A DNA stretch of 64,000 nucleotides from Fibrobacterales bacterium (lineage in GTDB: Bacteria; Fibrobacterota; Fibrobacteria; Fibrobacterales; JAOPTW01). The number at the start of each line of letters is the position of its first letter. Positions within the stretch are counted from its first letter, which is position 1. Under the pieces are notes generated by a model. The model did no database searches. It had not been told where the DNA came from and worked only from the letters and a program-made list of their open reading frames with translations. Of the stretch, positions 6,806 to 39,558 are shown in pieces. Where the stretch lies: assembly GCA_051532035.1 (NCBI GenBank), contig JAOPTW010000011.1, positions 62,043-126,042 on the forward strand, in the 5' to 3' direction. The position numbers were made by a program, and so were the translations under genes.

Positions 6806-7078
6806 AGTGTGCTCTTGGTAAAAGGGCGGTGTTTTAGACAAGAATACTATGTTTTAGGGGCAGAGACCACTGTTTTGGTGAGGTTTTGTGTGGATTTAGA
6901 AGCTTTCCCATTCTGTAGTTGATACCTTTGATGTAGTTTTAGCTTTTTGGATGACATTTAGTTTGTAGCTAATAATGTCCACACAAAAAAAGTAGCTACA
7001 TACTCAAGAACTCTGTTTACACCCCTGTTTTCTATCTTTTTGGACCAATATATCCTATTTCCCTTAAAAAGAGGACAC

Positions 7079-10710: not shown

Positions 10711-10836
10711 GCTTATTATAGACAATAGTATCTCCCGTTATTTCACCCATACCGTCATTTTTGAACCTTCTTGCAAAGCTACTTAACAATTTTTAGATTT
10801 GTACCGAGACAATTGATCACCAAGAGAGAAGAGACT

Positions 10837-11553: not shown

Positions 11554-13182
11554 TTACTCCACCTGATCATAACAGATAGCATCAAAAGGAGTACCCGGTA
11601 CCGCTGAACGGCCGGTAGTAATAACAATAGAGTCAGACATATCAAAGGTTATGTTTGAGACAATGGAAGTGGGCTTACCATTCTGTAAGGCCGTAACCGA
11701 TACATTGTTAGCGCCTTTACTGAATTTGATATCAGACCCTTTCACCTGCATGATATGCGGCGCGAGCATTACATCCGGCGGTACTTCAAAAAGAGGGAGG
11801 TCGGTAGATATGAACCAATCATCGGTTGTTGTGTTTTTCACTTCTATCTCTCTCGGCTTATCTGTTTGGATAGCACTTTCTAAAATTTGATTAAAAATAC
11901 CTTCTATCTGATCAGCATCAGAGAGTGCTTTAAAAAATCCATTTGTTTTTTCGGCCATAGCAACGAGTGGCTCATACCTTGAATTTTGTAATCCTATGTA
12001 GTATATCTCAGGATAATTTGTTGAATCTTGTTTCGCAATATAATTATCAAGCTTGGTAAGATCTTCTTCATAAGGGTTTCCATCAGTGAAGAACAATATC
12101 ACCTGTCTGTTAGGAGATTCAGTAGAGATAATATCACTCCAATCTTTTGCAAGAACGAGGGACGATTTAAAACTCGTTCCCACAGAATCATTATACTCAC
12201 CACAATTCATGGTACTTTCAAAGAGTTCGAAGTCATAGGTTGCTTTCTTTTTAAGTTTGTCAAGGTGAGCTGCATTAGAGAGTTTATCGGGCATTACGAG
12301 ACTATTATAGGTACTCACCGCTTCCCCATTACATACTCCCGCAGCAAACCCAAAATATGCGACATTGGATTTCGGTACTCGTGCGGTGAGTGTATCAATC
12401 GCTTTTACCACGGCAACAGAGGTGAGCATATCGGGATCATACTTTCTCATAGACATACTTCTATCAATAACAAAGGTGATATCGATAGGGTCGTTGAGCA
12501 CGTTCTTTAGAGGGAGACACATATTCAGACCGTTTTCACTTATGGAGCGTATGTTACTCGGTAGGGTATAGGTACTTATGATATCTGACTCGAATGATAC
12601 ACAGGAGTCATTCTGTGTCGCTAGTTCACAGCGATATGCAAGACATACAGAGAGCCCAGAACACTCATCATCAGCGCAGTCAATGTCACCGTCATCATCA
12701 TTATCAAGACCATCGATACAGAGAATTGTTGTATTTTCTCTGTCGGGGAGGCACGCTGCTATACCACTACAATCCATGTCATCACAATCAATGGCACCAT
12801 CGTCATCATTATCTACTAAGTCTGTGCATGTTTTGTGGGTGTTTTCTCCATCGGGTAAACAAACATCAATTGCCTTGCAGTTTAAATCGTCACAGTCTAT
12901 TTTATTATCACCATCATTATCAATTCCATCACTGCAGAGTTCTTTGGTGTTTTCATGTAATATTTCATTAGCTAAGAGTACACAGTATCGATCTGCATCA
13001 CAGTCACTGTCGTCACAATCAATATAACCATCGGAGTCATTATCAATTAAGTCGTCACACAGAGTTTCACTGGGTTTAATATCTTTTTTCATAGATAATT
13101 TTAAATTATCATCTTGATCGGAAATACAATTACTCAAAACTAATTGTATGAGTACCATTAAAAACAACTTTCCCTTAATCAT
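11554..13182 (-). CDS. Lipoprotein with four Cys/Asp-rich MopE-like putative metal-binding repeats and a von Willebrand factor A domain
   Basis: The track start 13218 is TTG. ATG 13182 gives MIKGKLFLMVLIQLVLSNC (lipobox). The repeat C-x-D-x-[IV]DND-x-DG-x-IDC-x-D-x-[DE]C occurs four times. VWA MIDAS motif: DITFVIDRSMSM. Confidence 0.8.
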   Translation of the reverse strand: MIKGKLFLMVLIQLVLSNCISDQDDNLKLSMKKDIKPSETLCDDLIDNDSDGYIDCDDSDCDADRYCVLLANEILHENTKELCSDGIDNDGDNKIDCDDLNCKAIDVCLPDGENTHKTCTDLVDNDDDGAIDCDDMDCSGIAACLPDRENTTILCIDGLDNDDDGDIDCADDECSGLSVCLAYRCELATQNDSCVSFESDIISTYTLPSNIRSISENGLNMCLPLKNVLNDPIDITFVIDRSMSMRKYDPDMLTSVAVVKAIDTLTARVPKSNVAYFGFAAGVCNGEAVSTYNSLVMPDKLSNAAHLDKLKKKATYDFELFESTMNCGEYNDSVGTSFKSSLVLAKDWSDIISTESPNRQVILFFTDGNPYEEDLTKLDNYIAKQDSTNYPEIYYIGLQNSRYEPLVAMAEKTNGFFKALSDADQIEGIFNQILESAIQTDKPREIEVKNTTTDDWFISTDLPLFEVPPDVMLAPHIMQVKGSDIKFSKGANNVSVTALQNGKPTSIVSNITFDMSDSIVITTGRSAVPGTPFDAICYDQVE

Positions 13183-13379
13183 AATACCCCTCGATGCATG
13201 CATATTGTCTGTGAACAATTAAATATATATTGTTGAGAATCAATCAACGTGCGACTTACACTGATATTTGGGTTGTTAAGAATGTTTTACTTTTGCGAAC
13301 TGTTTGAGTACAATTGGGGCGTATGGTGAGTTGCTTATTATGGCCCGAACTTCTCAGTTGTGAGTGGGAGGTCCATTAC

Positions 13380-14543
13380 TCATTCAATAATTTTCGCATC
13401 AATTAACTGATAACTATACTGCTTATTTTCACTTTTGAATACAATATGATAGATACCGAGTGTATCAATTCTTATGGATGATTCATTGACATTTACTTCA
13501 CCGTCATCATTATTATCGCCATAATAGTTTTCAATGTGATCATAATGATTGAATTTAAACCGGGGCTCCGCTTCAACAGTATCTTGAGTAAAATCAACAT
13601 AGATCTCCCATACGCCACTATCATCAATTAATTCAGTCATAGGAGTGTGCTTCCAATTGTTGAGATTCGAATGAAAGAATGCTGTTTGCCATCCAAACCC
13701 TGTTGGTTCATATTTCCAATCGGTATCATCACCAGCAGGATGATACCAAAGACTTGATGAAATGATATCGGGTCGATGATCGATAGTGTACTCTTTGGTG
13801 AGTGAATTAAACGTGATTTTATATTTAAATGTAGAATCAACACGTATTGAAGAGCCATGTAACGCCGCGACACCTTCAATCCCAGAAAGACCATAATTAT
13901 GGGGTACGGTATCAATATCAACGGTACCTTCATTGCCGTAGCGACTTATTTTGAAGCGTGGATCAGATGAACTATTAAAGTTTGCGTAGATTTCCCAAGT
14001 ATACGGACTGGTGCTTGTCATGGGGGTAGATTTCCAGTCGTTCAGAGTTCCTTTGATGTAGCATGTAGCCCATAGAGATTCAGAGGTGTCATTTACTGGC
14101 TCTAGTTTCCATGGGTTGTTTATTACGCGTTTTAATAGGAGTGGCTGTGGAGAAATACTGCTCGAAGACTCAGGAAAAGGATCAGATGACAAAAAGGGGG
14201 TGGTGCTCGATGGGGGCGATGATGATGATGAGATGGAGGATGATGGGTATATTGAGGATGAAGAAATGGGTGGTATCACACTCGATGAGGAACTTAAAGG
14301 GGGAATCACTTGTGAGCTTGAAAGAGTAGTAATTAATGAGTCTTTACTTGATAGAGTATCGGGGCGAGTGGAAGAAGAGGGCACTAGAGTCGGTGTTTGG
14401 GGTATGTTTGATGAAAGTGACACTATTATTGTTGAGGATGATAGTTCAGAGAGGGTATCAATTGTGTGTAATTCATCGACACAGCTTGAAAAAAAGATAC
14501 TCAGTACAGTGAGACTGATTGATATGACGGAGTGGGTATGCAT
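13380..14543 (-). CDS. Secreted Ser-rich protein with two tandem CBM48/CBM20-like (E-set) modules
   Basis: Signal peptide, then a ~120-aa Ser-rich linker. Two repeats have the pattern [LN]N[DN]WK-x-TPMT...WEIY..F....PRFK[FI], which resembles the GSFNNW...YKF pattern of CBM48. Confidence 0.55.
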   Translation of the reverse strand: MHTHSVISISLTVLSIFFSSCVDELHTIDTLSELSSSTIIVSLSSNIPQTPTLVPSSSTRPDTLSSKDSLITTLSSSQVIPPLSSSSSVIPPISSSSIYPSSSISSSSSPPSSTTPFLSSDPFPESSSSISPQPLLLKRVINNPWKLEPVNDTSESLWATCYIKGTLNDWKSTPMTSTSPYTWEIYANFNSSSDPRFKISRYGNEGTVDIDTVPHNYGLSGIEGVAALHGSSIRVDSTFKYKITFNSLTKEYTIDHRPDIISSSLWYHPAGDDTDWKYEPTGFGWQTAFFHSNLNNWKHTPMTELIDDSGVWEIYVDFTQDTVEAEPRFKFNHYDHIENYYGDNNDDGEVNVNESSIRIDTLGIYHIVFKSENKQYSYQLIDAKIIE

Positions 14544-14552
14544 AGTGGTTCC

Positions 14553-16079
14553 TTAAAAATTATAGGTTAGAGCGATATGAAAGGTATTTCTTTTATGAAT
14601 ATATAAGGTTGGTTGGGTATCACTGAAGGTTTTAGAAAATAATGCATAGCCCGCTGTTGCTGTAATGGCAATTTTTTGTGTAATATAGAGATGGAGCTCG
14701 GAGACTATTTCAAAATCTTGTGAATAGATATAGGTACCTTGATGTTTACCAACGAGCCCAAAACAGTAATACGAACCCAATGAAATTGCACCTTTTTGAT
14801 TGAAGATGCGGGGAGAAGTGAATCCTAGTCCAATTTTTGTCCAGTATTGCCGCTCTTCACTCTGGTTAAATTGTAGGTCTTGTGCAAGATACCACAGAGG
14901 CACTGGGTATACTTTGATTGAACTTTTTACTGATCCATCTAATGAGAGTGCTTTAGCGAGGGTGACTGTTATGTATGAATGGGGAGGTTTGATTGGAGCA
15001 GTTTTTTGAACTGTTCCTTTATAGTAGGCGATAGATATAGGGAGTGTGTGAAGGTCTGTAGAGTATATTTCTTTCTGTTCACGGCGTCGCACAACAAATG
15101 AATGAGAGCGGGTGGTCTCTTCGTTCTTCTGATAGAGGGTATAGTTTCCGGGGTTTAATGCAATAGAGAGGGGAATGCGTGATCGTTTGGTTAGGTCGGC
15201 AACGATGAGATTATCTCTATTGGCAATGGTAATACTGCCCATAAGGTGTGAATCGAGAATGATTCCAGAGCCAGAGCGATTGAGGTCTGTAAGAATGAGG
15301 TCGCCTTCGAGTTTCATGTTAAATTCAGCATTGGGGTGTTGTGAGGTGCCGAAAAATGATTGAGACTGTATCAGAGTATTGTGGTAAGCATAGGTATAGG
15401 CTTCCATGAGTGAGACTTTATTGTCACCCGATACATCTGCAGCCCCTCGTAATCCATTAGTAAAATAGTGTGTGAAATACGAACTGCCCAATTGATCAGA
15501 TTCATGGGAGAGCTCATTATGAGCGCTCGATGAAATAAGGATAGTCCCTTCGGCAGTAATGCTTTGGTTTATGGCTACGGGGGCAACCTTTTTTACCCCT
15601 TTTTTGCGGATGAGCGATCCACTTTCACAGGCATCAAAAAAACCGATTTTTACCCGAGCAGGTATTTCCTTAAAGAGACGCGCAAATTGATGATAGGTAA
15701 ATGAGGTAGAGCCAAGTTTCATCCTATGAGAATCGCCATGGCCCGAAAAATAGAATATAAAAACAGCAGGTTCTGATGTGGACTTATTGTGTAGTGCGAT
15801 CGTTGATTGCATCTGATTAAATGCTGTGATAACTTCTTTTTTTGTGGGAGACTTGAGGAGTGTTATGTTTTTGGGTTGTAAAAAACCAAAGTGAGAAAAT
15901 ATGGAAGATATTTTCTCAGCATCCTTTTCAGAGTATTTAAGCTTGGCATCTGATGGATCACCTTGGTTATGACCAATAAAAAGACCGTAGTGTGTTGAAG
16001 CGTGGACAGGGAGTATCGCCATAACAAAGAGAATAGTTATACTGGTTATAAAGAGTCGGCTCAATTTATTTTTTCTCAT
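14553..16079 (-). CDS. Secreted caspase-family (peptidase C14) domain protein with a C-terminal beta-barrel-like region
   Basis: Signal peptide. His-Cys dyad context FIFYFSGHGD...IGFFDACESGS. The C-terminal ~150 aa has alternating hydrophobic residues and ends ...HIALTYNF (terminal aromatic, as in OMPs). Confidence 0.75.
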   Translation of the reverse strand: MRKNKLSRLFITSITILFVMAILPVHASTHYGLFIGHNQGDPSDAKLKYSEKDAEKISSIFSHFGFLQPKNITLLKSPTKKEVITAFNQMQSTIALHNKSTSEPAVFIFYFSGHGDSHRMKLGSTSFTYHQFARLFKEIPARVKIGFFDACESGSLIRKKGVKKVAPVAINQSITAEGTILISSSAHNELSHESDQLGSSYFTHYFTNGLRGAADVSGDNKVSLMEAYTYAYHNTLIQSQSFFGTSQHPNAEFNMKLEGDLILTDLNRSGSGIILDSHLMGSITIANRDNLIVADLTKRSRIPLSIALNPGNYTLYQKNEETTRSHSFVVRRREQKEIYSTDLHTLPISIAYYKGTVQKTAPIKPPHSYITVTLAKALSLDGSVKSSIKVYPVPLWYLAQDLQFNQSEERQYWTKIGLGFTSPRIFNQKGAISLGSYYCFGLVGKHQGTYIYSQDFEIVSELHLYITQKIAITATAGYALFSKTFSDTQPTLYIHKRNTFHIALTYNF

Positions 16080-24561: not shown

Positions 24562-26112
24562 TTATCTCCAGCCCTTAACCACCTTACGCCCTTTCTCTAT
24601 AGTCTCTTTAAGTGTGTTAAGAGTGTTTTTCCACTCTTTCATGGTTAGGGCTCCGGTTTCTGGAAAGGTTCCTTGATGTGCCGCACGTGCCTGTTTATGA
24701 GCTGGTTCGATTTGTGCGGCCCATTCATCGAGCTTGGTATTTACTTGTGGGTACACCTCATCCAGAAGTTTATCAAGTGCTTCGCTGGCCTCAGGGAAAC
24801 AGAGCCAATGTTGTGCAATTTTATTGGTGCGATGCTGTGAGTTACAGGCTAATGCTGCGCGGGCTTCTTTCTCTACTTCAACTAAGCCACCCCAAAAGGG
24901 AGCCATTCTCGGAATAAAATCTGCATTATCCATATCCCAAGGTATCGTATAGAGCTTACCAGTTAACGTATCTGCATACCAATAGGAGTTATGCCCATCA
25001 TCACGCACAAAGGGACTGTCCCAATGCATGATAGCCATAGAGGTTAATACTGAGCTCACTAGGGAGGGGACATCCATATTTTTTCGTATTACTGCTTTAA
25101 TACGAGCAGGTTCATTCGCCTCCAATACATCACGTTCAAGGGATTGCCAGATTTCATGGGTTGGATCTTCATCCTCATTAGTCTTCAATACATAATTTAG
25201 GGATGGGCTCGGTGTTACCATATCATACTTGAGCGGTATTATCTCTTTATACACATTTCCTTCTCCGTCTTTAAAACGATCCCGAGTAAATCTTCCATCG
25301 ATATACTCTACGTGCGTAAATAATCCGATAAGTTTCCCGTTTATTTTAATCTTTGCATGTACAGCACGGGGGGCTATGCTTCCCATCTGTCGATGCATCC
25401 AATATGATAATCGTTCTTTCATTTGATCACGATAAAAATGCATGTGATGGAAAATCAATTTTTTCATACCAAAGAACAATCTATCCGAGTGTTTCTCACT
25501 ATTAATCTTTAGTTTCAGAGCAAGCTTTATGCACGTTTTTTCTCCTTCAGGGCTCCCCATTTCTCCAGAAGTACAATCGGCCCACGCTCCAAAACTTCCT
25601 TTATAACGCACTTGAATATCACGAATGGTATCTCCTTTAAATACTAAGTGTGCATACTCATAGTTCTCCATCTTTGGAGCCGCATCAAGCCGTGCCAATG
25701 CTTTAGTATCAATAATAATTTCATATGTTTTTACGGCATCCGTTTCATCAAAAATATATTCAAGATCGTGTCTGAGATTTTCACGTTTACTTAATGCAGC
25801 TGTTGAAGACATAGGTACTTCACTTGATGAAAGTATTTTTTCAGAGCTTCTATGAACATTGTCTGCACTGCTCGACAATACTGCAGGAGCATCACTACTC
25901 AGACTATCGATACTATTCGAACTTTCATGTACGCCACTGTGAGTACTTGTTTTAGGTTCACTACTTGTTCTCCTAACTTCTGCAGTGGAACTTTCAAAGC
26001 TCATTGCTTCACTACTAGCAGTATCAGATTGTGCCGTCGATAGATTATCTGAACCACAAGCCGTTAATCCTAATAGTACCATTAGCATTGCCCATTGTAA
26101 TATATATATCAT
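24562..26112 (-). CDS. CotH-family protein (putative secreted kinase-fold protein), lipoprotein
   Basis: Lipobox LLGLTACGS and a Ser-rich linker. CotH-like blocks: MKERLSYWMHRQMGSIAPRAVHAKIKINGKLIGLFTHVEYIDGRF, GNVYKE, HNSYWYADTLTGKLYTIPWDMDNA. Confidence 0.7.
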   Translation of the reverse strand: MIYILQWAMLMVLLGLTACGSDNLSTAQSDTASSEAMSFESSTAEVRRTSSEPKTSTHSGVHESSNSIDSLSSDAPAVLSSSADNVHRSSEKILSSSEVPMSSTAALSKRENLRHDLEYIFDETDAVKTYEIIIDTKALARLDAAPKMENYEYAHLVFKGDTIRDIQVRYKGSFGAWADCTSGEMGSPEGEKTCIKLALKLKINSEKHSDRLFFGMKKLIFHHMHFYRDQMKERLSYWMHRQMGSIAPRAVHAKIKINGKLIGLFTHVEYIDGRFTRDRFKDGEGNVYKEIIPLKYDMVTPSPSLNYVLKTNEDEDPTHEIWQSLERDVLEANEPARIKAVIRKNMDVPSLVSSVLTSMAIMHWDSPFVRDDGHNSYWYADTLTGKLYTIPWDMDNADFIPRMAPFWGGLVEVEKEARAALACNSQHRTNKIAQHWLCFPEASEALDKLLDEVYPQVNTKLDEWAAQIEPAHKQARAAHQGTFPETGALTMKEWKNTLNTLKETIEKGRKVVKGWR

Positions 26113-26391
26113 ATTTCTTGATACCCCTTAGAAGCTTTTGAACCACTGTAATATAACATTAATAAAATCCAAAAACTGAGGACCTCTGAGTCTAAACACT
26201 ATTTTACTGTTGCGAACATGTTGGATACAATATTGAGTGTATTTGTACCAATAAATAGACACGACGCGCTGTAAGACCCTAAAAATAAGGCTTTATTTAA
26301 CATTAGTTTACGGGGGCGTTTAGTGATTGTAATATATATTTCTGACTCCTTAGGGAATTATGTTTAACACAACACAAAAAAAAGGAACACT

Positions 26392-27819
26392 ATGAAACTA
26401 CTCAGTTCAATTATTGGATTGATTTATTTTGCGATACTCTTTATAGGGTGTGATGCAAAAACCAATCCTCAACAGACAGAAATTACACCAGAAAAAACAA
26501 CACAGCATTCCATCGTTGATGATGGGAACCCCGACACCCATCTTTTTAAAATTGCACAACAGGATCAACAACTGGTAATTGTGTGTAATCATAAACATCA
26601 CAGAGTCACAGACGATACCTCTTCAGAAAGTATTGCAGCAAAACATGGTTCTACTGTAGCACAATTCAAATACACTTATCTTATAGATGACCAACAAATT
26701 AAATGGGTCACCGTACGGGTTGATGAATCAGTGCCGACATCGGGAGTAGACAATTGGCGCACTCAAATTAAAAAGTCTCTAAAAAAATGGAATGCCGTTT
26801 CTGGAACACGGGTGTTTTTAAAATACACAACAGCAGCAGAGGCTGATATAACGATACAGAGTGATGTGGATGGGGAGCTTCCTGATTATGCCCTCGGAAG
26901 TGCGTATTATCCACTCAGTAATAACACGCTCCATGGAACCCTTCGACTTAATTTAGATGCAATGGGGAACAGGCCCTTCTCAAGTGCCTTAAAAACACAA
27001 ATCGTTTCACATGAACTCGGTCACGCGTTAGGGCTCGGTCATACAAACTCTTCAGAGGGACCATATACTACTCATATTGCTGGAACTAAAATTAATGATG
27101 GCAAATCATTAATGAATACAACTACCTACCTACACATTGATGGTAATGGTGAATTAAATACTCATATTCTAGGTTTCACCCTTGGTGATATTGATGCAAT
27201 TCGTTTGCTCTATCCGGATTATAGCGCATCTCTAGCATGGGATAACACAAACGTGCTAATGTTTAAAGGTAATTCCTATGTAATGTATGATATCAGTACT
27301 AATACAATCGTAGGCACTGAGAAAAGTATTGAGAGCGACTGGCCGGGGCTTACTGATCACTTTGCTACTATTGATGCCGCTGTTCATTCACCATGGAACA
27401 AGAATAGGGTCTTTTTCTTTAGAGGGAACAAATGTATTGAATACCAAAAATCACCGCGTCAAATCATAAGTGGTCCTAAAAAAACAGGCACTGTTTGGCC
27501 CGGCTTAGGTGATATTGTTGTTCAAGCGGCAATTGCATCCCCATGGAATGCTAAACAACTCCTTTTCTTTTCGGGTAAAAACTACTATAAATATGTGCAT
27601 ACTAAAAAGGCCCTGAGTAAAAAGAGCCCTCAAAAAATCAAAGGAAAATGGGGCGACCTCAAATTCTCTACTATAGATAATGCATTCATTTCTGCTTCCG
27701 AAAACAACTCAATTTATTTCTTTAAAAACAGATCTTACAGCATGTTTGATACAGATCTTAGACAGCAAGAAGTAGGATTCCCTGCAATTGCCGAAGAGAA
27801 CTTAAGTGGATTGTATTAA
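26392..27819 (+). CDS. Matrixin-like (M10) zinc metalloprotease with a C-terminal four-blade hemopexin-like domain
   Basis: Lipobox ILFIGCD. Zinc site HELGHALGLGHT. The C-terminal ~200 aa contains four repeats of the hemopexin pattern (..FKGNSYVMYD.., DAAVHSPWNKNRVFFFRGNKCIEY, QAAIASPWNAKQLLFFSGKNYYKY, DNAFISASENNSIYFFKNRSYSMFD). Confidence 0.8.
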   Translation: MKLLSSIIGLIYFAILFIGCDAKTNPQQTEITPEKTTQHSIVDDGNPDTHLFKIAQQDQQLVIVCNHKHHRVTDDTSSESIAAKHGSTVAQFKYTYLIDDQQIKWVTVRVDESVPTSGVDNWRTQIKKSLKKWNAVSGTRVFLKYTTAAEADITIQSDVDGELPDYALGSAYYPLSNNTLHGTLRLNLDAMGNRPFSSALKTQIVSHELGHALGLGHTNSSEGPYTTHIAGTKINDGKSLMNTTTYLHIDGNGELNTHILGFTLGDIDAIRLLYPDYSASLAWDNTNVLMFKGNSYVMYDISTNTIVGTEKSIESDWPGLTDHFATIDAAVHSPWNKNRVFFFRGNKCIEYQKSPRQIISGPKKTGTVWPGLGDIVVQAAIASPWNAKQLLFFSGKNYYKYVHTKKALSKKSPQKIKGKWGDLKFSTIDNAFISASENNSIYFFKNRSYSMFDTDLRQQEVGFPAIAEENLSGLY

Positions 27820-27848
27820 TATCGTCTGAGTATCAATTTTTTAATTAC

Positions 27849-27875
27849 ACCGGGGTATTAATCCCCGGTTTTTAT
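27849..27875 (+). terminator. Rho-independent terminator
   Basis: Perfect 7-bp stem accgggg / ccccggt with a 7-nt loop, followed by ttttt. Confidence 0.85.
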
Positions 27876-27989
27876 TATAGGTTGAATAGATCAATAGTAA
27901 AACAACTCATTCTATTAAAAAACATCAAATTCAGAATATAAGTGAAGTTGTTCTCGTGAAAAGATCATACAATATAAACAGTTTATTAA

Positions 27990-29228
27990 ATGTATTGTTC
28001 TATGGAGCTTGACTTAAAAACAATTGTTGTAATGCATACAGTTCTCACAACCTGTATGACCTTCGTGTATTTTTCATATTGGAAAGTGCAGCGCTGTCAT
28101 CCTGGGTATGGGTTGTGGATGCAGAGTTTATTTGTGTTATCTTTTGCCGTTTGGGTGTATGTTGCTCGTGTTTCCATTCCTTTATGGGTTAGCGTAGGCG
28201 GAGCAAGCTTTCTCTTTGCACTAGCAGCGGTATTGAGGGCCGATTCTATTTCACGATTTGTAACAGGAAAAAGAACTCATAAATGGTCCTATAGTATTCC
28301 TTTTGTTTGTACGCTCTCTGCGCTCTATTTTGGATTTGTTGCTGACGTTTATGTGGGTCGAAATCTATCAGTTACCGCGCCTTTAGTGGTATTACTATCG
28401 TATATGATGATGGTATTACTCCAAAATGCAAAAGGGAGCGTGGCCTGGCTCTATAGAGGCGTTGCTTTTCTTACCTTTGTAAAAGCAGTTATGTTGATCA
28501 CTCGATTTGTATATAATACTAAATATGGGTATGAAATGGATCTTTCACAAGACAACATTATTGCCACTCTTTTCTTTATTCTCGTGGCGTTAGAAGTTCT
28601 CGAAGCAACTGTATTTTTACTCTTAAATATGCAGCGCAGTGAACTGCTGTTATCGGAGTCAAATAAGGAACTTACTGAAAGTGAAAATCGCTTTCATTCT
28701 CTTTCGGATGCTTCATTTGAAGGGGTAGCTATTGTAGAAAACGAGAAAGTTATAGAGGTAAATTCAAGCTTTATAGCTATGTATGGCTTTAATGATGCAT
28801 CTGAAGTGGTGGGTAAAGAGTTTTCGGAATTTATCCCTCACAACAAATATGAAAGAGTGATGTTACGATTGAATTCAGATGAAAATTCTCCTTATGAATC
28901 TGAGGGATTAAAAAAAGATAAATCTATTATACCTGTAGAATATAATGGAAAACCATTTGAATATAAAGACAGTCTACTCCGTATAATTGCGGTAAAAGAT
29001 ATGAGTAGACAAGTAGCTGCCGAAAAAGAGATAAAAGACCTTAAAGGTATATTGCCTCTCTGTAGTTACTGTAATAAAATTAAAGATGATGAAGGTAATT
29101 GGGAAAAAGTAGATCAATATATTCAACATAATTCACAAGCTGATATAAGTCATAGTCTATGCCCAACCTGCCTTAAGCAAAATTACCCGGATGAGTACGA
29201 AAAAATGAAAGGTCTCGATGGTATTTAA
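27990..29228 (+). CDS. 7TM-PAS sensor protein with a C-terminal CxxC...CxxC zinc-ribbon-like tail and no recognisable enzymatic output domain
   Basis: Seven hydrophobic helices in aa 10-215. PAS-like segment (FHSLSDASFEGVAIVENEKVIEVNSSF...). Tail: LPLCSYCNKIKDDEGNWEKVDQYIQHNSQADISHSLCPTCL. The start could instead be ATG 28002. Confidence 0.75.
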   Translation: MYCSMELDLKTIVVMHTVLTTCMTFVYFSYWKVQRCHPGYGLWMQSLFVLSFAVWVYVARVSIPLWVSVGGASFLFALAAVLRADSISRFVTGKRTHKWSYSIPFVCTLSALYFGFVADVYVGRNLSVTAPLVVLLSYMMMVLLQNAKGSVAWLYRGVAFLTFVKAVMLITRFVYNTKYGYEMDLSQDNIIATLFFILVALEVLEATVFLLLNMQRSELLLSESNKELTESENRFHSLSDASFEGVAIVENEKVIEVNSSFIAMYGFNDASEVVGKEFSEFIPHNKYERVMLRLNSDENSPYESEGLKKDKSIIPVEYNGKPFEYKDSLLRIIAVKDMSRQVAAEKEIKDLKGILPLCSYCNKIKDDEGNWEKVDQYIQHNSQADISHSLCPTCLKQNYPDEYEKMKGLDGI

Positions 29229-29598
29229 TAGGGCAGACAATCTTATTCATTACTATCGTTCCTGAACCATTATTAACTGGTATCTCCATAAACACCGATG
29301 GATAATTCTCTGCTTACACCGATATAATGCGCTTGTTTCTAGTGTTTGTTTAGGTAGCAGGAAACGTCAAATAAATACCTCATTTAATACCAATTTGTAA
29401 TATTGGAGTCATGAATGCTCGATAGGGCCTTTAAATGGGGGTGTTATCCTAAAACAACACATCATTACTTTGTTTTTAAAGCCTCCGGGTATTTTCAAAG
29501 ATGCATAAATTGATGAATTGTTATACACTAAAGGGAGTAGTTAATAATTGATGAGTTAATACTATTTGCTCTTTCAAAAAATACTGAGAAGGATCAGT

Positions 29599-32500
29599 AT
29601 GAAATTATGGTCGAAAGTATTCATAGGTTTAGGAACAGTGATTGTGTTGTTGATCACTCTTGCCGGAACTGGAATATTCAGTCTCTCTGACGCAAATAAT
29701 AATTTTAAGGAATATCGATCCCTAGCGCGAAAAACTAATGCAGATGGCCGGATTCAGGCAAATATGCTTATGACACGGTTGTACGTTAAGAATTTTATCA
29801 TTAACCCCAGTGAAGAGAATATCAAAGGGGTTACTGCTCGTGCAAAGAAAACAATAACAATGATAGAAGAAGCTCATGCCCTCGAATTAGATTCTTTAGA
29901 AAATAATATGGTACATATTCTCAATAATGAACTTGATGACTACGTCCTTATTTTTGGAGAGGTAGTGAAAAAACACGCAAGAAGAGATGACCTTGTCTTA
30001 AATACTCTTAATCTTGTTGGCCCAAATATGGAGAGGGGCCTCACTACAATAATGGCCAGTGCTTTTGCTGATTCGGACAATCAAGCTTCATATTGGGCAG
30101 GAATGACACTACGAAGTATGTTGCTTGCACGCATCTATGCAACACGGTATCTTGTCCAAAATGATAAACAATCTTTTAAGCGTGTTGAAGTAGAATTTGA
30201 AAATATGGAAACTGAGTTAAATGAACTGATAGATCATCTTGAAAATCCCTATCGGCTATTACTTGCTAAAAGAGTTAAGAAAGACCAACAAACCTATCGT
30301 GATGCTTTTAAAGAAGTGTACCAATCAATTTCAAATCGCAATAATCTTATTAAAAATAGATTGGATAAAATAGGGCCCTATGTAGCAGATGAGATTGAGC
30401 AACTGAAGTTATCACTTAAAGATCAACAGGATGAACTGGGACCAATTGCAGAACAATCGGTAAACCGTGGGGTTAACATAATGATTGTTGTCTCGCTTAT
30501 TTCTTTAGTGTTTGGTGGAGTAATCATCTGGCTAACAGGTTTAAGGGTGGCACAACCTCTTAAAAAGATTACCCTTGCAATGGATGTGTTGGCTAAAGGG
30601 GATACAACTGTAGAGATACCCTATACCCAGAACCATGATGAAATTGGTGATATGGCAAAGGCAGCAACTATTTTTAGAGATAATATGATACAGGTTCAGA
30701 CTCTCACTGAAGTACAGGCAACATCGATGAATGAACTTGAAGAAAAAGTGGCTGAGCGAACAGGGGAGTTTGAGAAAGCAAAAATTGAGGCTGAATCTGC
30801 GAATGAAGCGAAATCAAATTTTCTCGCCAATATGTCACATGAAATTCGTACACCAATGAACGCAGTGTTAGGCCTTAATCACCTTCTTGCAAAAACAACC
30901 CTCACTGATAAACAAGTGGATTATGTACACAAAATTGGTGAATCAGCCCAAGGCCTATTGGGGATAATAAATGACATACTTGATTTCTCAAAAATTGAGG
31001 CGGGTAAACTCGATATAGAAGAGATAGATTTTGAGTTGGACTCTGTTATAGATAATGTATCAAATATGATCTTAATGAAAGCGCAGGAACGAGACATTGA
31101 GCTGATATTCTCTGTAGCCCCAGAAATACCACCGGTCTTGGTAGGAGATCCATTGAGACTCGGTCAGGTGTTATTAAACTTAGCCAATAATGCTCTCAAG
31201 TTTACCGAATCAGGGGAAATTAAATTTAATGTTACAAGTGAAGAAAAAGGTGATGACTTTATTAAACTTGGCTTTAGCATTACCGATACTGGGATTGGCA
31301 TGACTGATGCACAACAAGAAAAACTTTTTAAGGCATTCACGCAAGCTGATAGCTCAACTACTCGAAAATTTGGTGGTACCGGCCTCGGTCTCAGTATTTC
31401 CAAACGACTTACAGAAATGATGGGTGGCGAAATTGGAGTTACCAGTAAAAAAGGTGAAGGGAGTTGTTTCTTTTTTAATGCAGTGTTTAAAATTAGTGAT
31501 GCAATAATTGAACAAAAATATGTCATACCTGATGGGATAGAAGGAATGAAAGTATTAGTCGTTGATGACAATGACTCCGCCTTACAAGTCATGGATGCTT
31601 ATTTGACAGACTTCTCTATTAATGCGACCTGTGTATCTGATGGGATACACGCACTTGAGATGGTAGCTCAAAAGAATAATGATGAAGAGACCGCCTATCA
31701 AGTAATATTTTTGGATTGGCAAATGCCTGGAATGAATGGCATAGAAGTTGCCCGTGAGGTCAAAGGAATGAACTTGGTAGTACAGCCTAAAATAGTTTTG
31801 GTAACCAGTTATGGGCGAGAAGAAATTAAGGACCAGAGTGACAGCCTCATGCTGGATAGCTTCTTATTAAAGCCGGTGGGACAGTCATTGATTTATGACA
31901 CCATACTAGAAGTGTTTAATTTCACTGAACTCAGTCCAAAAAGATTCAACAAGACTCATAGTATCCCTAACGTTGAAAGGATTCGTGGTGCATCAATACT
32001 ATTAGTTGAAGACAATGAAATAAACCAACAAGTTGCACAGGAATTACTAGAGGCCGAAGGATTGCTGGTTACTGTAGCAGACTCTGGACAACATGCTTTG
32101 GATGTATTGAATGGAGATAGAAATTTTCATTTGATACTGATGGATTTACAAATGCCGGGCATGGGTGGGATAGAGGCGACTACTCATATTCGTAAAAAAT
32201 ATGGGAACGGGCTTCCCATTATCGCTATGACTGCAGATGCAATGAGTGGTGTTGAAGAAGAGGTCTATTCAGTAGGTATGAATGGCTATATTACCAAACC
32301 TATCGATGTATCAATACTTTTTGATCACCTGTTACAGTTTATAGATGGTGATGAAATCTCTGAAGGTGACCGTTTAAAGGGGGGGCAACAAAGTACCCTC
32401 TCTAAAAATACTGATGCAACAGCGTTAGAAGTTACAGGTATAAATACCGTCGATGGTATAAATCGAGTAGCCGGAAACAGGAAGTTATACACCTCCTTAC

Positions 32501-33006
32501 TCAAAAAATTCATGGATAATAATCAAAGTTTTATGATTGATATTACCCAATCTATTGATGCCGGAGATTTTGAAGCGGCCGCAAGAATTGCTCATTCTCT
32601 TAAAGGAGTCTCAGGGAATATTGGGGCGGAACGTATATTTGATAGAGTACGTCGTTTAGAGGGGTTTTTAAAGGAGCCTTCGCCAGATAAAACGATAGTA
32701 GAAAGTCACCTGGAAACAATTGGCAGGGAATTAAAAACGGTCTTTGAAAGTATTTCAGATAATCTCGATAGTATGGGCGTTTCCAATGCCGACATATCAA
32801 TAGAAAATGACCCGACGATTCTACTGGCCCGATTAAAAGTTGAGTTAGAAGAGTACAGTGTTAATAGTGATACAACTTTTAATACTTTAAAACCCTGGCT
32901 TGCTAAACAGTTCAACACAGAAGATATGCTCGCGATACAAAATGCAATAGAAGAGTATGCTTATGATACGGCAATTGATCTTCTAGAAAATATTGGGCGT
33001 GCATAG
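29599..33006 (+). CDS. Hybrid sensor histidine kinase (periplasmic helical sensor, HAMP, HisKA, HATPase, two receiver domains, Hpt)
   Basis: The track start 29566 is TTG. ATG 29599 has an AAGGA RBS. H-box [10 protein letters not shown]-boxes DTGIGM and GGTGLGLSI. Receivers [22 protein letters not shown] and [22 protein letters not shown]. Hpt motif [13 protein letters not shown]. Confidence 0.9.
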
Positions 33007-33138
33007 AGGCAACGTTTCACCAAAATAAACCCATATTTTGGCTATAATCTACGTTGTCCCTGTATATATTCTTCTTTACTCTTTACGGCATTTGACTTTA
33101 AAATACTGAAATAGTATAATAATGTCAATAAGGCAGAT

Positions 33139-34701
33139 ATGATGAAGGAATTACTACGAAGGTTTTGTAATCAAGGTAATGCGCGAGGTTTCATTCTTGT
33201 CTTTAGTTTTAGTGCATTTCTTTTTCAGATTGGGTTGGCGGCTTATATATATAGGCATTATGTAATTCACTCGGAAGAAGATGCATCACAACTCTTTGAA
33301 GTTGGACAGATACAAAAAGCAATAGAAGAGCGCTTTTATCATATTGGTAGTGACCTTAGGTATCTAGTAAAAATAGATCTTACCCCCTTTATATTTTCTG
33401 ATACTCGCAACACATTGGTCAAAGCGAGCCTTACTTCACTTGCATCATCTATCATGGAGCGCTATTCTTACGACCAGATACGATGGATTGATACCAGTGG
33501 GCAGGAGGTATTACGAATTAATTACGATTCTGATTTAAATACACCATATAGAGTACCAGATTCTTTGCTTCAAAATAAGAGAACGCGATACTATGTTACT
33601 GAGACATTTGAGGCTGCTGGTAAGATATTTATTTCTCCAATAGATTTGAATGTTGAGCATGATGTCGTTGAAAAACCAATTAAGCCAATGATCAGAATTG
33701 CAAAGGCCGTGGTTGATAAAGCAGGAAATACTCTAGGTATGGTAATTCTTAATTATCGCATGAATGATCTTCTTCACACTCTAGATGAATTGAATGCACA
33801 TGAGGGTGATCAATTACTGTTATTAAATTTAGATGGCTATTATTTAAAGGGATTGAATCGTGCGCATGAGTTTCGCTTTATGTATCCCGATCTCGAACAG
33901 GTCACTTTTTCAACAGATAATCCTGAACTATGGAAACATGTATTAACATCAGATAGTATTATCTCTCATAAAAGTGGAAATTGGTATATCAAAAAAATAT
34001 TCCCTTACAAAGGAGTTGAATTTGCGAGCATAGATAAAAGATGGTATTTATACCTCGTTATGCATAAGCCAGAAAAGATGGTTCACAAACTTGATTATAG
34101 CTTGTTGATGACTTTGGCTGGCTCCGGAGGAATACTGTTACCCTTATTGATGTTTCTTGGTTGGAAATTAGGAAAGTACCAAGCAAGAGAGCTGGCTCAT
34201 TTGGCAAAATTAAAACGTGAAGCTACGCTTGATGATTTCACCGGTGTTTATAATAGGCGTGGGGGAAATAAGAAACTCGCAGATCTCTTTGATATATTTC
34301 AAAGAATTAAAGGGCGTTTTGCAATCGCATTTGTCGATATCAACAATCTAAAGTATACAAATGATGTACTGGGGCACGAAGAAGGCGACTTGCTTATAAA
34401 AGGTGTGGCACTGATACTCAATCAGCGTCAGAGAAAAATAGACTTTGTAACTCGTCTTGGAGGCGATGAATTTTTAGTCGTATTTATTGATTGTGGGGAA
34501 GGTGATGCAATCAGAATTATGAGCACTATACAAGAACAGATCATTGACCTAGGGCGGATTCGTGAAAGAGATTGGAGTATTAGTTTTGGGTGTGTAGAAA
34601 ATAAAGGGTACACTGCTGTTGATGATATTATAAGAGAGGCGGATATCAGAATGTACCAGTTTAAACAACAATATAAGGCGACAGAAGGGAGGAACAAATA
34701 A
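33139..34701 (+). CDS. Diguanylate cyclase (GGDEF) with an N-terminal Cache-like periplasmic sensor
   Basis: Two TM helices flank a ~290-aa sensor. GGDEF domain with DDFTGVYNRRG and the active-site motif RLGGDEFLVVF. Confidence 0.85.
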   Translation: MMKELLRRFCNQGNARGFILVFSFSAFLFQIGLAAYIYRHYVIHSEEDASQLFEVGQIQKAIEERFYHIGSDLRYLVKIDLTPFIFSDTRNTLVKASLTSLASSIMERYSYDQIRWIDTSGQEVLRINYDSDLNTPYRVPDSLLQNKRTRYYVTETFEAAGKIFISPIDLNVEHDVVEKPIKPMIRIAKAVVDKAGNTLGMVILNYRMNDLLHTLDELNAHEGDQLLLLNLDGYYLKGLNRAHEFRFMYPDLEQVTFSTDNPELWKHVLTSDSIISHKSGNWYIKKIFPYKGVEFASIDKRWYLYLVMHKPEKMVHKLDYSLLMTLAGSGGILLPLLMFLGWKLGKYQARELAHLAKLKREATLDDFTGVYNRRGGNKKLADLFDIFQRIKGRFAIAFVDINNLKYTNDVLGHEEGDLLIKGVALILNQRQRKIDFVTRLGGDEFLVVFIDCGEGDAIRIMSTIQEQIIDLGRIRERDWSISFGCVENKGYTAVDDIIREADIRMYQFKQQYKATEGRNK

Positions 34702-37593: not shown

Positions 37594-39558
37594 CTATGTG
37601 TTTTCACCGGATATTGAATCGGCAATGTTGGTTATGTGCTGGTTAATATGTTGAAATGACTGTGATATATTTTCCATGTATGAATTCATTTCATCGGTTG
37701 ACACAGATTGTTCGGTAACAGCAGTGGCGATAATACTTTGATACTCCTGCAGTTTAGTAAGAACATTGGTTATTTCAGCAAGAGTTGTAACGGTGTGTGT
37801 AACATTAGATTTCATCTCTTCAACGTGTTCTTTTATTTCATCTGTAGCACCTGCAGTTCGCTTTGCCAGCTCTTTAACTTCACTAGCAACAACAGCAAAA
37901 CCTTTTCCGGATTCGCCTGCAGAAGCAGCTTCAATTGTAGCATTCAACGCTAATAGAGAGAGCATATCGGCAGTATCGGTAATCATGTTGACTATTTTTG
38001 AAATTTTATCACCGGAGGTTTCCAGGTTTTTAATAACATGAGTAGAGCTTGCTGCAAGTTCAGCTCCGCTATCAGATAAATTTTTGGATTCGAGTGTGTT
38101 TTGTGAAATCTCCGAAATTGTCTGTGATAACTCTTCCATGCTTGCTTTCACCGTTGCTACAGTAGAATTTACCGTATCTGAGGATTCCTTGATCTCAGAA
38201 ATCGCCGATGTTTCAAGTGAGCGCGAATTTATTTCGTCCATAAGTATATGAGACTCTTTAAGCATATGGTGATGGCAATTTTCTGGCTTATTTAAACCGT
38301 TGTGAATAGCTGTTGCCATATCTTCGCATTTACCATAACCGCAGGCGTTGCAGTTAAACATATCTGCTTCGGTCTCTTTACCCATTGATAGATAAATGTT
38401 TTGAACGTCTTGTGTATTGGGAGTTTGAATAGTATTATTTGAACTTTTATCGGTATACGTTCTACTGTAGAGCCCTGGCTTCCAGTGACTGTTAACGAGC
38501 TTCTCAAGTTCTTTCTGGGTTTTTAACTCCCCTTTACGGCCACTTTTTTTGTACAGCGCCTGCATCTCTTGGTTTCTTTTCTCAACAAAATATTCAATAT
38601 CATCAGGAGATTTGTGTGAATTTCCCGTTCCCGGCCCGCCATTACAACCAAGGTCACAATTTAGGCAATCTATTAATACCGGCTGTCTTCCTTTATTAAT
38701 TACATCATCAAGCTTTTCAAGATATTCATAAATTACTTCTGGGCCCTCTATTTTCCTCGTGATCTGATCGATATCTCTGTTCCATCTTTGCGCTGTTCTC
38801 AACAATCCCCCAGGGGTAGAAAATAGAACCCCTCTCTCTGCAGGAGGATTTGAGTAATCCTCTTTTGGAAAGCGGTTTATATTAATGTTATTCTCTTGGA
38901 GGTGCTCTTTAAATGCCTTCATAGTAACATTGAAGTCACCAATAGTGTCATCAAACTCACGTTTTTTAGCAACACACGGTGAAACAATAAGAACTTTATG
39001 GTATTTGTATTCCGGATAATACTCTTTAAGAAGTTTTACTGTGTGGAGCATTGGGCTGTCGGCTGGTGCAAGATGATCAATAAGTTCAGGATGATAAATT
39101 TCAATAAAGGAGACGAGCGAGGGGCAGGGCTGCGAGATTACTGTTTCTGGACTATTTTTTTCAACATGATCCAGGTAAGATTTTATAGTGAGTTCTGCCC
39201 CAAAACTAACATCAAAAAAACCATCAACGCCAAGAGACTTTAAATACCCGTTAAATTCCAGATAAGCATCGGGAAAAACAGCGGCAATAGCAGGAGCAAC
39301 AATGGCAACAATTTTATCACCCTTTTTTACTGCTTGCTGAAAAGAGTCCATGTCATCAACTCCAACCCTGGCTTCATGGGTGCAATGCTTCAAGCACTGA
39401 CCGCAACCCAAACACATATTATCATTTAACTGTACAGTGTCACCAGATCCGTCATTACAATATTTTACCGGGCACACAGCGATACACGTGTGACAATTAT
39501 TACATTTTTCATCAATGACAGAAATGACTTTTGCTAAGTTGTGCATACAATACCCCAT
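37594..39558 (-). CDS. Soluble chemoreceptor with 2x[4Fe-4S] ferredoxin, [FeFe]-hydrogenase-like domain and MCP signalling domain
   Basis: CNNCHTCIAVCP and CLGCGQCLKHC clusters. H-cluster-like motifs ISQPCPS, VSPCVAKKRE, IDCLNCDLGCNGGPG. C-terminal MCP hairpin [38 protein letters not shown]. No TM helix. AAGAGG RBS upstream of 39558. Confidence 0.85.
   Translation of the reverse strand: MGYCMHNLAKVISVIDEKCNNCHTCIAVCPVKYCNDGSGDTVQLNDNMCLGCGQCLKHCTHEARVGVDDMDSFQQAVKKGDKIVAIVAPAIAAVFPDAYLEFNGYLKSLGVDGFFDVSFGAELTIKSYLDHVEKNSPETVISQPCPSLVSFIEIYHPELIDHLAPADSPMLHTVKLLKEYYPEYKYHKVLIVSPCVAKKREFDDTIGDFNVTMKAFKEHLQENNININRFPKEDYSNPPAERGVLFSTPGGLLRTAQRWNRDIDQITRKIEGPEVIYEYLEKLDDVINKGRQPVLIDCLNCDLGCNGGPGTGNSHKSPDDIEYFVEKRNQEMQALYKKSGRKGELKTQKELEKLVNSHWKPGLYSRTYTDKSSNNTIQTPNTQDVQNIYLSMGKETEADMFNCNACGYGKCEDMATAIHNGLNKPENCHHHMLKESHILMDEINSRSLETSAISEIKESSDTVNSTVATVKASMEELSQTISEISQNTLESKNLSDSGAELAASSTHVIKNLETSGDKISKIVNMITDTADMLSLLALNATIEAASAGESGKGFAVVASEVKELAKRTAGATDEIKEHVEEMKSNVTHTVTTLAEITNVLTKLQEYQSIIATAVTEQSVSTDEMNSYMENISQSFQHINQHITNIADSISGENT

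Follow-up and report, generated by a model that had tools for sequence, protein, structure and literature searches.

A bacterial lipoprotein metzincin of the M57 type joined to a hemopexin propeller in the layout of animal matrix metalloproteinases

In the 64,000-nucleotide stretch of Fibrobacterales DNA analysed here, which as a whole we call the window, an open reading frame with an ATG start encodes a protein of 475 amino acids (aa) and spans exactly 26392..27819 on the forward strand, in agreement with an earlier reading made from the letters alone (the sequence-only reading), which took the product for a bacterial matrixin. Here we present evidence that the catalytic domain is that of an M57-type bacterial lipoprotein metzincin and not that of a matrixin, and that the C-terminal domain, as modelled, is a complete four-blade hemopexin propeller. 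The simplest reading of the sequence comparisons is that two bacterial modules were fused independently to give this protein, and that its resemblance in layout to the matrix metalloproteinases (MMPs) of animals is that of an analogue, not of an orthologue or xenologue. As to function, we think it fairly probable that the protein is a lipid-anchored zinc endopeptidase of ~50 kDa, an M57 domain fused to a bacterial hemopexin domain, with the propeller serving as an exosite. (Public databases already list the protein, designated P0001 and referred to below as the query protein, by a generic name; its NCBI product name is 'M57 family metalloprotease', from a Fibrobacterales metagenome-assembled genome.) The parts of the protein that precede the propeller are as follows.

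26392..27819, forward strand: coding sequence, with stop codon, of the lipoprotein of 475 aa (M57-type metzincin followed by hemopexin propeller); from the open reading frame, Pfam and the NCBI name
26392..26451, forward strand: signal peptide, residues 1-20, with lipobox (FIG-C20) and predicted lipidation at Cys20
26452..26655, forward strand: N-terminal tether or possible pro-segment, residues 21-88; AlphaFold2 (AF2) pLDDT <60
26656..27216, forward strand: metzincin catalytic domain, M57-like, residues 89-275; from Pfam M10 and M57, AF2 and hhalign
27010..27045, forward strand: zinc-binding consensus HELGHALGLGHT, residues 207-218 (H207, E208, H211, H217, T218)
27106..27117, forward strand: Met-turn S-L-M-N (S239, M241), 23 residues past the third His

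The catalytic domain is of the M57 type

The lipobox and zinc site described in the sequence-only reading are both present, the former as FIGC at C20 and the latter as HELGHALGLGHT at residues 207-218. The same reading proposed KSLMN as a candidate Met-turn, and this is a sound assignment because neither S239 nor M241 varies among 36 members of the family. (The set of 36 comprises 33 catalytic-only relatives with E <1e-20 and three fusion proteins, namely the query protein and two relatives, P0002 and P0007, that are described below.) Also invariant in this set are H207, E208, H211, G214, H217 and T232, and T218 and D236 are nearly so. When AF2 was supplied with an alignment of 40 sequences the catalytic domain was modelled with a pLDDT of ~85-97; this run replaced one with two sequences, in which the pLDDT of the domain was <50.

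Pfam scans, which had been proposed as a check, bore out the expected matches to Hemopexin (46.8 bits against a cut-off of 21.3) and Peptidase_M10 (31.5 bits against 24), but the cut-off for Peptidase_M57 (PF12388) was passed as well (28.5 bits against 21). Note that the Peptidase_M10 match covers only profile positions 7-129 of 159 and stops short of the Met-turn region. Moreover, every one of the 36 closest catalytic-domain relatives matches PF12388 (best E 9e-22), and 30 of them also cross-match M10. The 33 catalytic-only relatives are nearly all lipoproteins, with the zinc motif HE[LI]GHxxG[LF]xHT, a GTP...D spacer of 20-30 residues and an S-[VI]-M-N Met-turn. The signature that the query protein shares with its M57 relatives, HExGHxxGxxHT...GT...D..S[VIL]MN, is present as HELGHALGLGHT followed by IAGTKINDGKSLMN, in addition to the FIGC lipobox. 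By pairwise BLAST, the catalytic domain is 34-40% identical to M57-like proteins over ~190 aa and 26% identical to the best animal MMP over 104 aa.

A phylogeny of catalytic domains had also been proposed, and we built a neighbour-joining (NJ) tree (a distance method, not maximum likelihood) from the family, M57-like proteins, animal MMPs, bacterial M10 proteins and astacin-like hemopexin fusions. The bacterial M10 proteins came from Lactobacillus, Actinomycetota and other genomes; among the matches listed in a scan of GTDB genomes with the three-member alignment were distant M10-type catalytic loci, and these became the bacterial M10 outgroup of the tree. P0001 and P0002 fall among the M57-like proteins (66% bootstrap without the long-branch P0007), away from the animal MMPs, which form a separate clade. 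By median Kimura distance the query protein is nearest to M57 proteins (1.07), with other bacterial M10 proteins (1.83) and animal MMPs (2.04) farther off.

We weighed the possibility that the protein is a true matrixin (M10A), that is, either an ancient relative in bacteria in which the MMP layout was already present or a xenologue derived from an animal. The Peptidase_M10 gathering score is passed, the family profile is collinear with full-length proMMP-1 in both domains, full-length MMPs are the top Foldseek matches, and hhalign of the family against 18 animal MMPs gives a probability of 98.3% for the catalytic domain (E 1.5e-14), which is homology at the level of the metzincins. However, in the same hhalign comparison the structural-zinc ligands H170, D172, H185 and H198, which do not vary among the MMPs, align to D160, E162, S170 and N187, and the PFDGP calcium loop of MMPs is deleted in the family. 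An 18-residue insertion precedes the family Met-turn, so that the spacer is 23 residues rather than the 7 of animal MMPs, the third His is followed by Thr, and the Met-turn reads SLMN in place of ALMYP. The sequence-only reading was correct that no PRCGxPD motif is present: PRCG occurs nowhere in the query protein, P0002 or P0007, and among the proteins fetched it was found only in the animal MMPs P0003-5. Against solved structures, serralysins (4e-8) and myroilysin (3e-7) are about as close to the catalytic profile as MMPs (1e-8). In addition, both domains have much closer bacterial relatives in separate protein families, the composition of the gene is native to the window, the hinge is <=5 residues long and the disulfide that joins blades I and IV in MMPs is absent (see below). 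We therefore regard a true matrixin as very improbable; the name matrixin does not stand, given the PF12388 matches of 36 of 36 relatives, the nesting within M57 in the NJ tree, the missing structural-zinc ligands and calcium loop, and the 18-residue insertion.

The C-terminal domain is predicted to form a complete hemopexin propeller

Residues 277-475 consist of four mutually alignable repeats of 46-52 aa each, as the sequence-only reading had indicated.

27220..27357, forward strand: hemopexin blade 1, residues 277-322; repeat alignment, AF2
27358..27513, forward strand: hemopexin blade 2, residues 323-374 (ATIDAAVHSPW...); Pfam, repeat alignment, AF2
27514..27663, forward strand: hemopexin blade 3, residues 375-424; repeat alignment, AF2
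27664..27816, forward strand: hemopexin blade 4, residues 425-475; repeat alignment, AF2

The match to Pfam Hemopexin (PF00045) has an E of 2.8e-12, so the repeats do not fail the hemopexin model, an outcome that had been named as one that would count against the assignment. (The only repeat that passes by itself is 327-373, in blade 2.) In the AF2 model from the 40-sequence alignment (mean pLDDT 82.3, pTM 0.79) the propeller has four blades of four strands, mostly with a pLDDT >90, and this predicted structure superimposes on the hemopexin domain of MMP-14 with an rmsd of 2.1 Å and a TM-score of 0.84 over 195 columns (Foldseek). The other Foldseek matches of the propeller are vitronectin, the hemopexin domains of MMP-2, MMP-9 and MMP-13, and plant hemopexin-fold proteins; a single-sequence search of solved structures returned plant hemopexin-fold proteins, MMP-1, vitronectin and gelatinase A. 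These comparisons agree with the claim of a complete four-blade propeller, and the domain and motif matches of the query protein lie far beyond chance. The protein ends at blade 4, with no C-terminal domain beyond it and no sorting domain.

The animal MMP-like order of domains is likewise borne out, in that the family profile aligns end to end with proMMP-1 over both domains (E 1e-33), and the best two-domain Foldseek matches are full-length MMP-13, proMMP-1, MMP-1 and MMP-12 (E 1e-19 to 1e-16). Relative to one another, however, the two domains are not posed as in MMPs, because superposition of both domains on full-length MMPs gives an rmsd of ~15 Å. The linker is <=5 residues, as in the AF2 model the catalytic domain finishes with a C-terminal helix that runs to residue 273, and the first strand of the propeller begins at 277. 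With C348 as the sole Cys in residues 277-475, the domain lacks the disulfide that links blades I and IV in MMPs. The bacterial hemopexin relatives examined also have no Cys pair; the disulfide is a mark of the MMP subtype and not of the hemopexin fold.

The nearest relatives of both domains are bacterial

The propeller is 30-35% identical to bacterial hemopexin proteins over ~195 aa, with hidden Markov model (HMM) E values of 1e-30 to 1e-38, and 29% identical to its best animal match over 168 aa, the animal HMM E values being 1e-10 to 1e-13. Thus the nearest relatives of each domain are bacterial, but they lie in different protein families. The gene itself has a GC content of 0.390 (the mean of the window is 0.393), its GC3 and codon usage are also typical of the window, and its codon-usage distance is among the lowest in the window. 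Because the nearest relatives are bacterial proteins of different families and the composition is that of the window, we favour a fusion of the domains within bacteria. The sequence-only reading offered an ancient bacterial relative or a horizontal acquisition, and suggested comparing the GC content and codon usage of the gene with those of its neighbours; the results support neither an ancient MMP of bacteria nor one acquired from animals, and a recent horizontal transfer was rejected since GC, GC3 and codon usage are all window-typical.

Distribution of the fusion and of bacterial hemopexin propellers

In an exhaustive HMMER search, 2984 of 1.84 billion cluster representatives matched at E<=1e-3 and 1147 at E<=1e-10. 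We classified these by dividing the query profile into N-terminal, catalytic and propeller HMMs, and found catalytic-only proteins, propeller-only proteins (often with several propellers each) and a handful with both domains. The M57-like domain together with this subtype of propeller occurs in three representatives predicted from their residues to be active, namely the query protein, P0002 (40% identical) and P0007 (29%). The zinc ligands, catalytic Glu and Met-turn are strictly kept in all three. The combination is therefore very rare, and the possibility raised in the sequence-only reading that the architecture might prove common in this phylum was not borne out, the exact architecture having been found in only these three.

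P0002 and P0007 are encoded in the same assembly, GCA_047518385.1, on contigs JAOPTP010002318.1 (locus L001) and JAOPTP010000536.1 (locus L020), respectively. NCBI labels P0007 as Reichenbachiella sp. (Bacteroidota). Among its neighbours are a Fib_succ_major (PF09603) gene and a DUF4423 gene, and DUF4423 is also found in the window at 3446..4270. The contigs of P0002 and P0007 look Fibrobacter-like, and the GCA_047518385.1 bin may be mixed or mislabelled. The P0002 locus (L001, 1246..8110) shows partial synteny with the window (26392..34701), the order being protease, hybrid sensor kinase and response-regulator/GGDEF-type protein; the kinases are 38% identical over 698 aa and the response-regulator/GGDEF-type proteins 32% identical, and the window has an extra PAS protein between. 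Common descent or a regulatory link could account for this synteny. (In L020 there is, in addition, a second M10-like protein, of 375 aa, at 9992..11119.)

A further protein, P0109, comes from a Logan assembly. It is a 430-aa lipoprotein with the collinear two-domain layout (28% identity over 361 aa) in which the propeller is retained. Because its zinc motif has changed from HELGHALGLGHT to VLLGSALGFAIEG, P0109 is, judging by its residues, probably a dead enzyme or pseudo-protease.

Other searches were less informative. A metagenome scan with the family motif TIDAA[IV]xSPW gave 65 matches, all attributable to chance and with neither domain present, and the positive control worked. Word-indexed searches returned the query protein itself, P0002 and animal MMPs for the full protein, nothing (not even the query protein) for the propeller alone, and only animal MMPs for the 40-sequence profile, results that reflect the limits of the index rather than an absence of relatives.

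Bacterial hemopexin repeats had been thought rare. This assumption needs correcting: among the 1147 representatives at E<=1e-10, the propeller is present in 111 of the top 150, and all 91 of the propeller representatives that were scanned pass Pfam Hemopexin. Named carriers include Streptomyces, Sinosporangium, Oligoflexus, Gammaproteobacteria, Alphaproteobacteria, Taklimakanibacter and Bacteroidota, and the usual NCBI name is 'hemopexin repeat-containing protein'. The propeller is found with toxins, namely a ribosome-inactivating protein (RIP; in Streptomyces) and ADP-ribosyltransferases of the pertussis-S1 and enterotoxin-A kinds, and with enzymes, namely class-3 lipase, phosphatidylinositol-specific phospholipase C, M35, M23, trypsin, C39 and astacin. 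In at least eight further representatives it is joined, in varied domain order, to an HExxHxxGxxH peptidase of another family (astacin-like, M43-like or M11-like). The bacterial hemopexin propeller thus looks like an under-described general targeting module of secreted effectors. The M57 relatives, for their part, carry DUF5648, FG-GAP, BTRD1, dockerin or tachylectin modules at their C-termini, with hemopexin in three of 36. (P0009 and P0041 are also among the bacterial proteins that fuse propellers to catalytic or toxin domains, and some giant propeller proteins of 4600-5000 aa have about ten propeller matches each.)

In a different view of the protein, the propeller would be the main unit, a lectin-like or small-ligand binder (of glycan, polyamine or haem) that anchors the cell or captures a nutrient, the protease being secondary or self-processing. 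Consistent with such a view, the best single-sequence matches of the propeller in the PDB are plant lectins and albumins with the hemopexin fold (LS-24, CP4 and the chickpea lectin), the organism degrades polysaccharides, with a GH8 protein, a GH26-CBM35 protein (glycoside hydrolases, GH, the latter with a carbohydrate-binding module, CBM) and a ricin-lectin protein encoded nearby, and the collinear P0109 has kept its propeller and lost its zinc site. On the other hand, the three active members all retain, without exception, the zinc ligands, the catalytic Glu and the Met-turn, and no carbohydrate-binding residues are identifiable from sequence. Moreover, serum hemopexin holds haem between two propellers by means of two His residues, whereas the query protein has one propeller and no conserved His pair. 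We consider this view unlikely.

The N-terminus

The N-terminus of the query protein reads MKLLSSIIGLIYFAILFIG-C20-D, with a positive n-region, a hydrophobic core of 17 residues and the FIGC lipobox. G19, C20 and D21 are kept in P0002, and the lipobox of P0007 is LASC. Residues 21-88 are predicted to be mostly disordered apart from one hairpin, a low-confidence beta-hairpin at residues 51-66, and Cys65 lies within a C-x-x-K-H stretch. C65, K68 and H69 are conserved in P0002 and not in P0007.

One explanation of this segment is that the protein is made as a latent zymogen, in which residues 21-88 block the active site through Cys65, as a non-canonical, myroilysin-like cysteine switch that is removed on activation. 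(Myroilysin is a bacterial metzincin that is activated by a cysteine switch.) The C65, K68 and H69 common to P0001 and P0002, the presence of myroilysin among the profile matches to solved structures, and the predicted disorder of the segment would all accord with this. However, neither P0007 nor the M57-like relatives have this Cys, the AF2 confidence of <60 allows no contact with the zinc site to be claimed, and the segment may be a plain lipoprotein tether. A zymogen of this kind seems to us quite unlikely.

A proposed role for the protein

In the reading that we favour, that of a lipid-anchored M57 endopeptidase with a hemopexin exosite, signal peptidase II would process the protein at Cys20 to give a lipid-tethered enzyme at a membrane, and a largely disordered stretch of ~65 residues, a tether or possible pro-segment, would lead to the catalytic domain. 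There the catalytic zinc would be held by H207, H211 and H217, with E208 as the general base and M241 in the Met-turn, and the domain would be proteolytically active. The single four-blade propeller, joined almost without a linker, would amount to a rigidly attached exosite, docking a macromolecular target (protein or glycoconjugate) at the cell envelope and presenting it to the catalytic cleft; the enzyme itself would be located at the surface or in the periplasm. We infer docking by the propeller by analogy, because hemopexin domains act in this way in MMPs and because the bacterial propeller has repeatedly been appended to enzymes and toxins.

Several points weigh against this reading. The pose of the two domains comes from AF2 alone, the bootstrap for the query protein inside the M57 clade is moderate (66%), and the catalytic domain of P0007 is a long branch whose grouping in the NJ tree is unreliable, so that a single origin of the fusion is not proven. 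The Asp at position +2 after the lipid-modified Cys would mean retention in the inner membrane under E. coli rules; the location of the protein is uncertain because the +2 rule is that of E. coli and may not hold in Fibrobacterota. The gene neighbourhood points to a degrader of polysaccharides and contains no direct clue to a substrate. In the literature searched we found no biochemical data on any M57-hemopexin protein, and the sole functional data point that we found for M57 is a strongly induced gene of Kordia algicida, which was not the algicidal protease sought (PMC10565126).

A more specific proposal is that the hemopexin propeller recognises a substrate of triple-helical or polyproline-II type, which would make the protein a convergent bacterial 'collagenase' of MMP-like layout. 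In this case the substrate might be a collagen-like protein of bacterial surfaces, such as the product of 7040..9718, or else a structural protein of animals or plants. We regard this proposal as distinctly improbable. A related reading is that the large and varied bacterial pool of propellers, and not animals, was the evolutionary source of the hemopexin domain of MMPs.

The 7040..9718 gene (forward strand) is 17 kb upstream of the protease gene, and any functional link between the two is pure speculation. It encodes an 892-aa lipoprotein with long, acidic, proline-free G-X-Y tracts that are collagen-like (Pfam Collagen, 149 bits, in five stretches). The tracts are broken by Cys-bracketed modules and followed by a C-terminal domain of ~300 aa with an NNRWG motif, which we take to be typical of GH12 glycoside hydrolases.

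The protease gene and its surroundings

The features that flank the coding sequence are as follows.

26113..26391, forward strand: upstream intergenic region, shared with the divergent CotH-like gene
26203-26231, forward strand: weak sigma-70-like site; promoter-like motif scan
26383-26386, forward strand: AGGA ribosome-binding site, 5 nt 5' of the ATG
27849..27879, forward strand: intrinsic-terminator-like hairpin (27849-27869), 7-bp stem with six G-C pairs, then a T-run; 30 nt past the stop codon

The promoter of the protease gene is not established, because promoter-like matches upstream of it are no commoner than in shuffled sequence. The gene is probably monocistronic, because a strong terminator-like hairpin lies 30 nt past its stop codon. 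A functional operon with the neighbours was rejected, as the protease gene is served by a terminator of its own and lies between a divergent CotH-like gene and genes for signalling proteins. The neighbours encode a CotH-like lipoprotein, a PAS protein, a hybrid histidine kinase, chemotaxis receptors, two-component proteins and the GH8, GH26-CBM35 and ricin-lectin proteins. The divergent gene, 24562..26112 on the reverse strand, encodes a CotH kinase-like protein (Pfam CotH, 100 bits) with a lipoprotein-type signal of its own (LLGLTAC) and a Ser-rich N-terminal region.

Elsewhere in the window, 37594..39558 (reverse strand) encodes a 654-aa protein with 4Fe-4S and [FeFe]-hydrogenase large-subunit-like domains and a methyl-accepting chemotaxis signalling domain, and by its domains is probably a redox- or H2-sensing chemoreceptor. 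The adjacent genes at 11554..16079 (reverse strand) encode a VWA-domain protein (554 aa), an unannotated protein of 387 aa and a caspase-like Peptidase_C14 protein (508 aa). The product of 47338..52863 (reverse strand), of 1841 aa, has bacterial Ig (Big_9), cadherin-like and GLUG motifs, which suggest that it is probably a large surface adhesin. Two open reading frames of ~275 aa, 54658..55485 and 58202..59020 (both reverse strand), have a GC content of 0.47-0.48 and a GC3 of 0.53-0.54 (window mean 0.39), and the most atypical codon usage in the window, and they match nothing in Pfam; perhaps they are foreign genes, or else spurious.

Implications

A catalytic domain followed by a hemopexin domain is usually deemed a hallmark of animal MMPs, and the query protein shows bacteria assembling the same layout from parts of their own. 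Because astacin-like, M43-like and M11-like hemopexin fusions exist alongside it, the layout appears to have been assembled repeatedly, which suggests a convergent solution rather than a marker of descent. The classical prokaryotic example of hemopexin repeats is photopexin of Photorhabdus. We found no description in the literature searched of M57-hemopexin or other bacterial peptidase-hemopexin fusions. A 2025 survey of bacterial MMPs covered 1677 bacterial Pfam-M10 sequences in at least 1039 species and does not mention hemopexin (PMC12587646). Note that surveys of 'bacterial MMPs', and datings, that are based on PF00413 call for caution, because enzymes of the M57 type cross-match PF00413.

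The compact protease-propeller pair, with neither disulfide nor hinge, is a possible tractable model for the way in which a hemopexin exosite steers a metzincin. Without a substrate and a biological role the finding is a curiosity at the level of annotation, and its interest rises if the propeller directs the enzyme to collagen-like or structural substrates; were the collagenase-like proposal true, bacteria would have arrived by convergence at a mechanism that defines collagenolysis in animals.

Comparison with known systems

The M57 family (PF12388, 'dual-action HEIGH metallo-peptidase'), the MEROPS holotype of which is PrtB of Myxococcus xanthus, consists mostly of lipoproteins of Bacteroidota-like organisms. 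The query protein shares with it the lipoprotein signal, the VD.S.P..G.DNW motif, HExGHxxGxxHT with Thr past the third His, and a long spacer to an S-[VIL]-M-N Met-turn, at 34-40% identity over the whole catalytic domain. It differs in that Ala replaces the Cys that usually follows the second His (HELGHC), the spacer is without the full NW...GTP consensus, the N-terminal GF...YLVEGDI.F motif is degenerate and, in contrast to most M57 proteins, the C-terminal module is a hemopexin propeller (three of 36 relatives).

Like the animal MMPs (M10A; MMP-1, MMP-13, MMP-12 and MMP-14), the query protein has a metzincin domain with HExxHxxGxxH and a Met-turn, followed by a four-blade propeller. Unlike them, it has no PRCGxPD pro-domain, structural zinc or calcium S-loop, it has Thr and not Ser past the third His, its Met-turn spacer is 23 rather than 7 residues, and its hinge is <=5 residues rather than 15-65. 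Moreover, it has a single propeller Cys and hence no disulfide between blades I and IV, and a lipid anchor where MMPs are secreted or held by a glycosylphosphatidylinositol anchor or transmembrane segment. The identity is only ~25%, and the interdomain pose is different (~15 Å).

Karilysin of Tannerella forsythia (M10A) is, like the query protein, a bacterial metzincin of the Fibrobacterota-Chlorobiota-Bacteroidota group without a cysteine switch, and the similarity in sequence between the two is marginal (E ~0.2). In structure karilysin closely copies the catalytic domain of MMPs, including the structural zinc; it has a short Asp-switch propeptide, a C-terminal domain of the type IX secretion system and no hemopexin domain, and is thought to have been acquired from an animal (a bacterial MMP xenologue). 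The query protein, in contrast, has the hemopexin domain and lacks both the C-terminal sorting domain and the structural-zinc ligands.

With the serralysins (M10B) the query protein has in common a long spacer from the third His to S-x-M, the lack of a structural zinc and a beta-rich C-terminal domain packed on the catalytic domain, and the serralysin profile match (E 4e-8) is comparable to that of MMPs (1e-8). The serralysins have features of their own, namely Pro past the third His, Tyr in the SxMSY turn, a C-terminal beta-roll of RTX (repeats-in-toxin) type and type I secretion. The query protein scores 23.4 bits with the NCBIfam serralysin model NF035945 (cut-off 500), has no RTX repeats, has Thr past the third His and has SLMN without the Tyr.

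Finally, there are the other bacterial peptidase-hemopexin fusions. Oligoflexus WP_324959649.1, P0055 and P0107 consist of an astacin-like domain and four repeats, P0008 of a propeller, an M43-like domain and a second propeller, and P0121 of a propeller and an M11-like domain. These and other bacterial fusions (including the RIP-hemopexin proteins of Streptomyces) resemble the query protein in that a four-blade propeller of the same bacterial type (30-35% identity) is joined to a catalytic or toxin domain, and several are lipoproteins. Their partners, however, are different (astacin-like with HExxHxxGxxHE, M43-like or M11-like), as is sometimes the order of the domains. Their repeats give strong Pfam matches (140-330 bits) with the consensus DAA.NWGNGK.YFFKG..Y.RYD, whereas the subfamily of the query protein is divergent, with 46.8 bits, the motif DAA..SPW[NS] and shorter loops.

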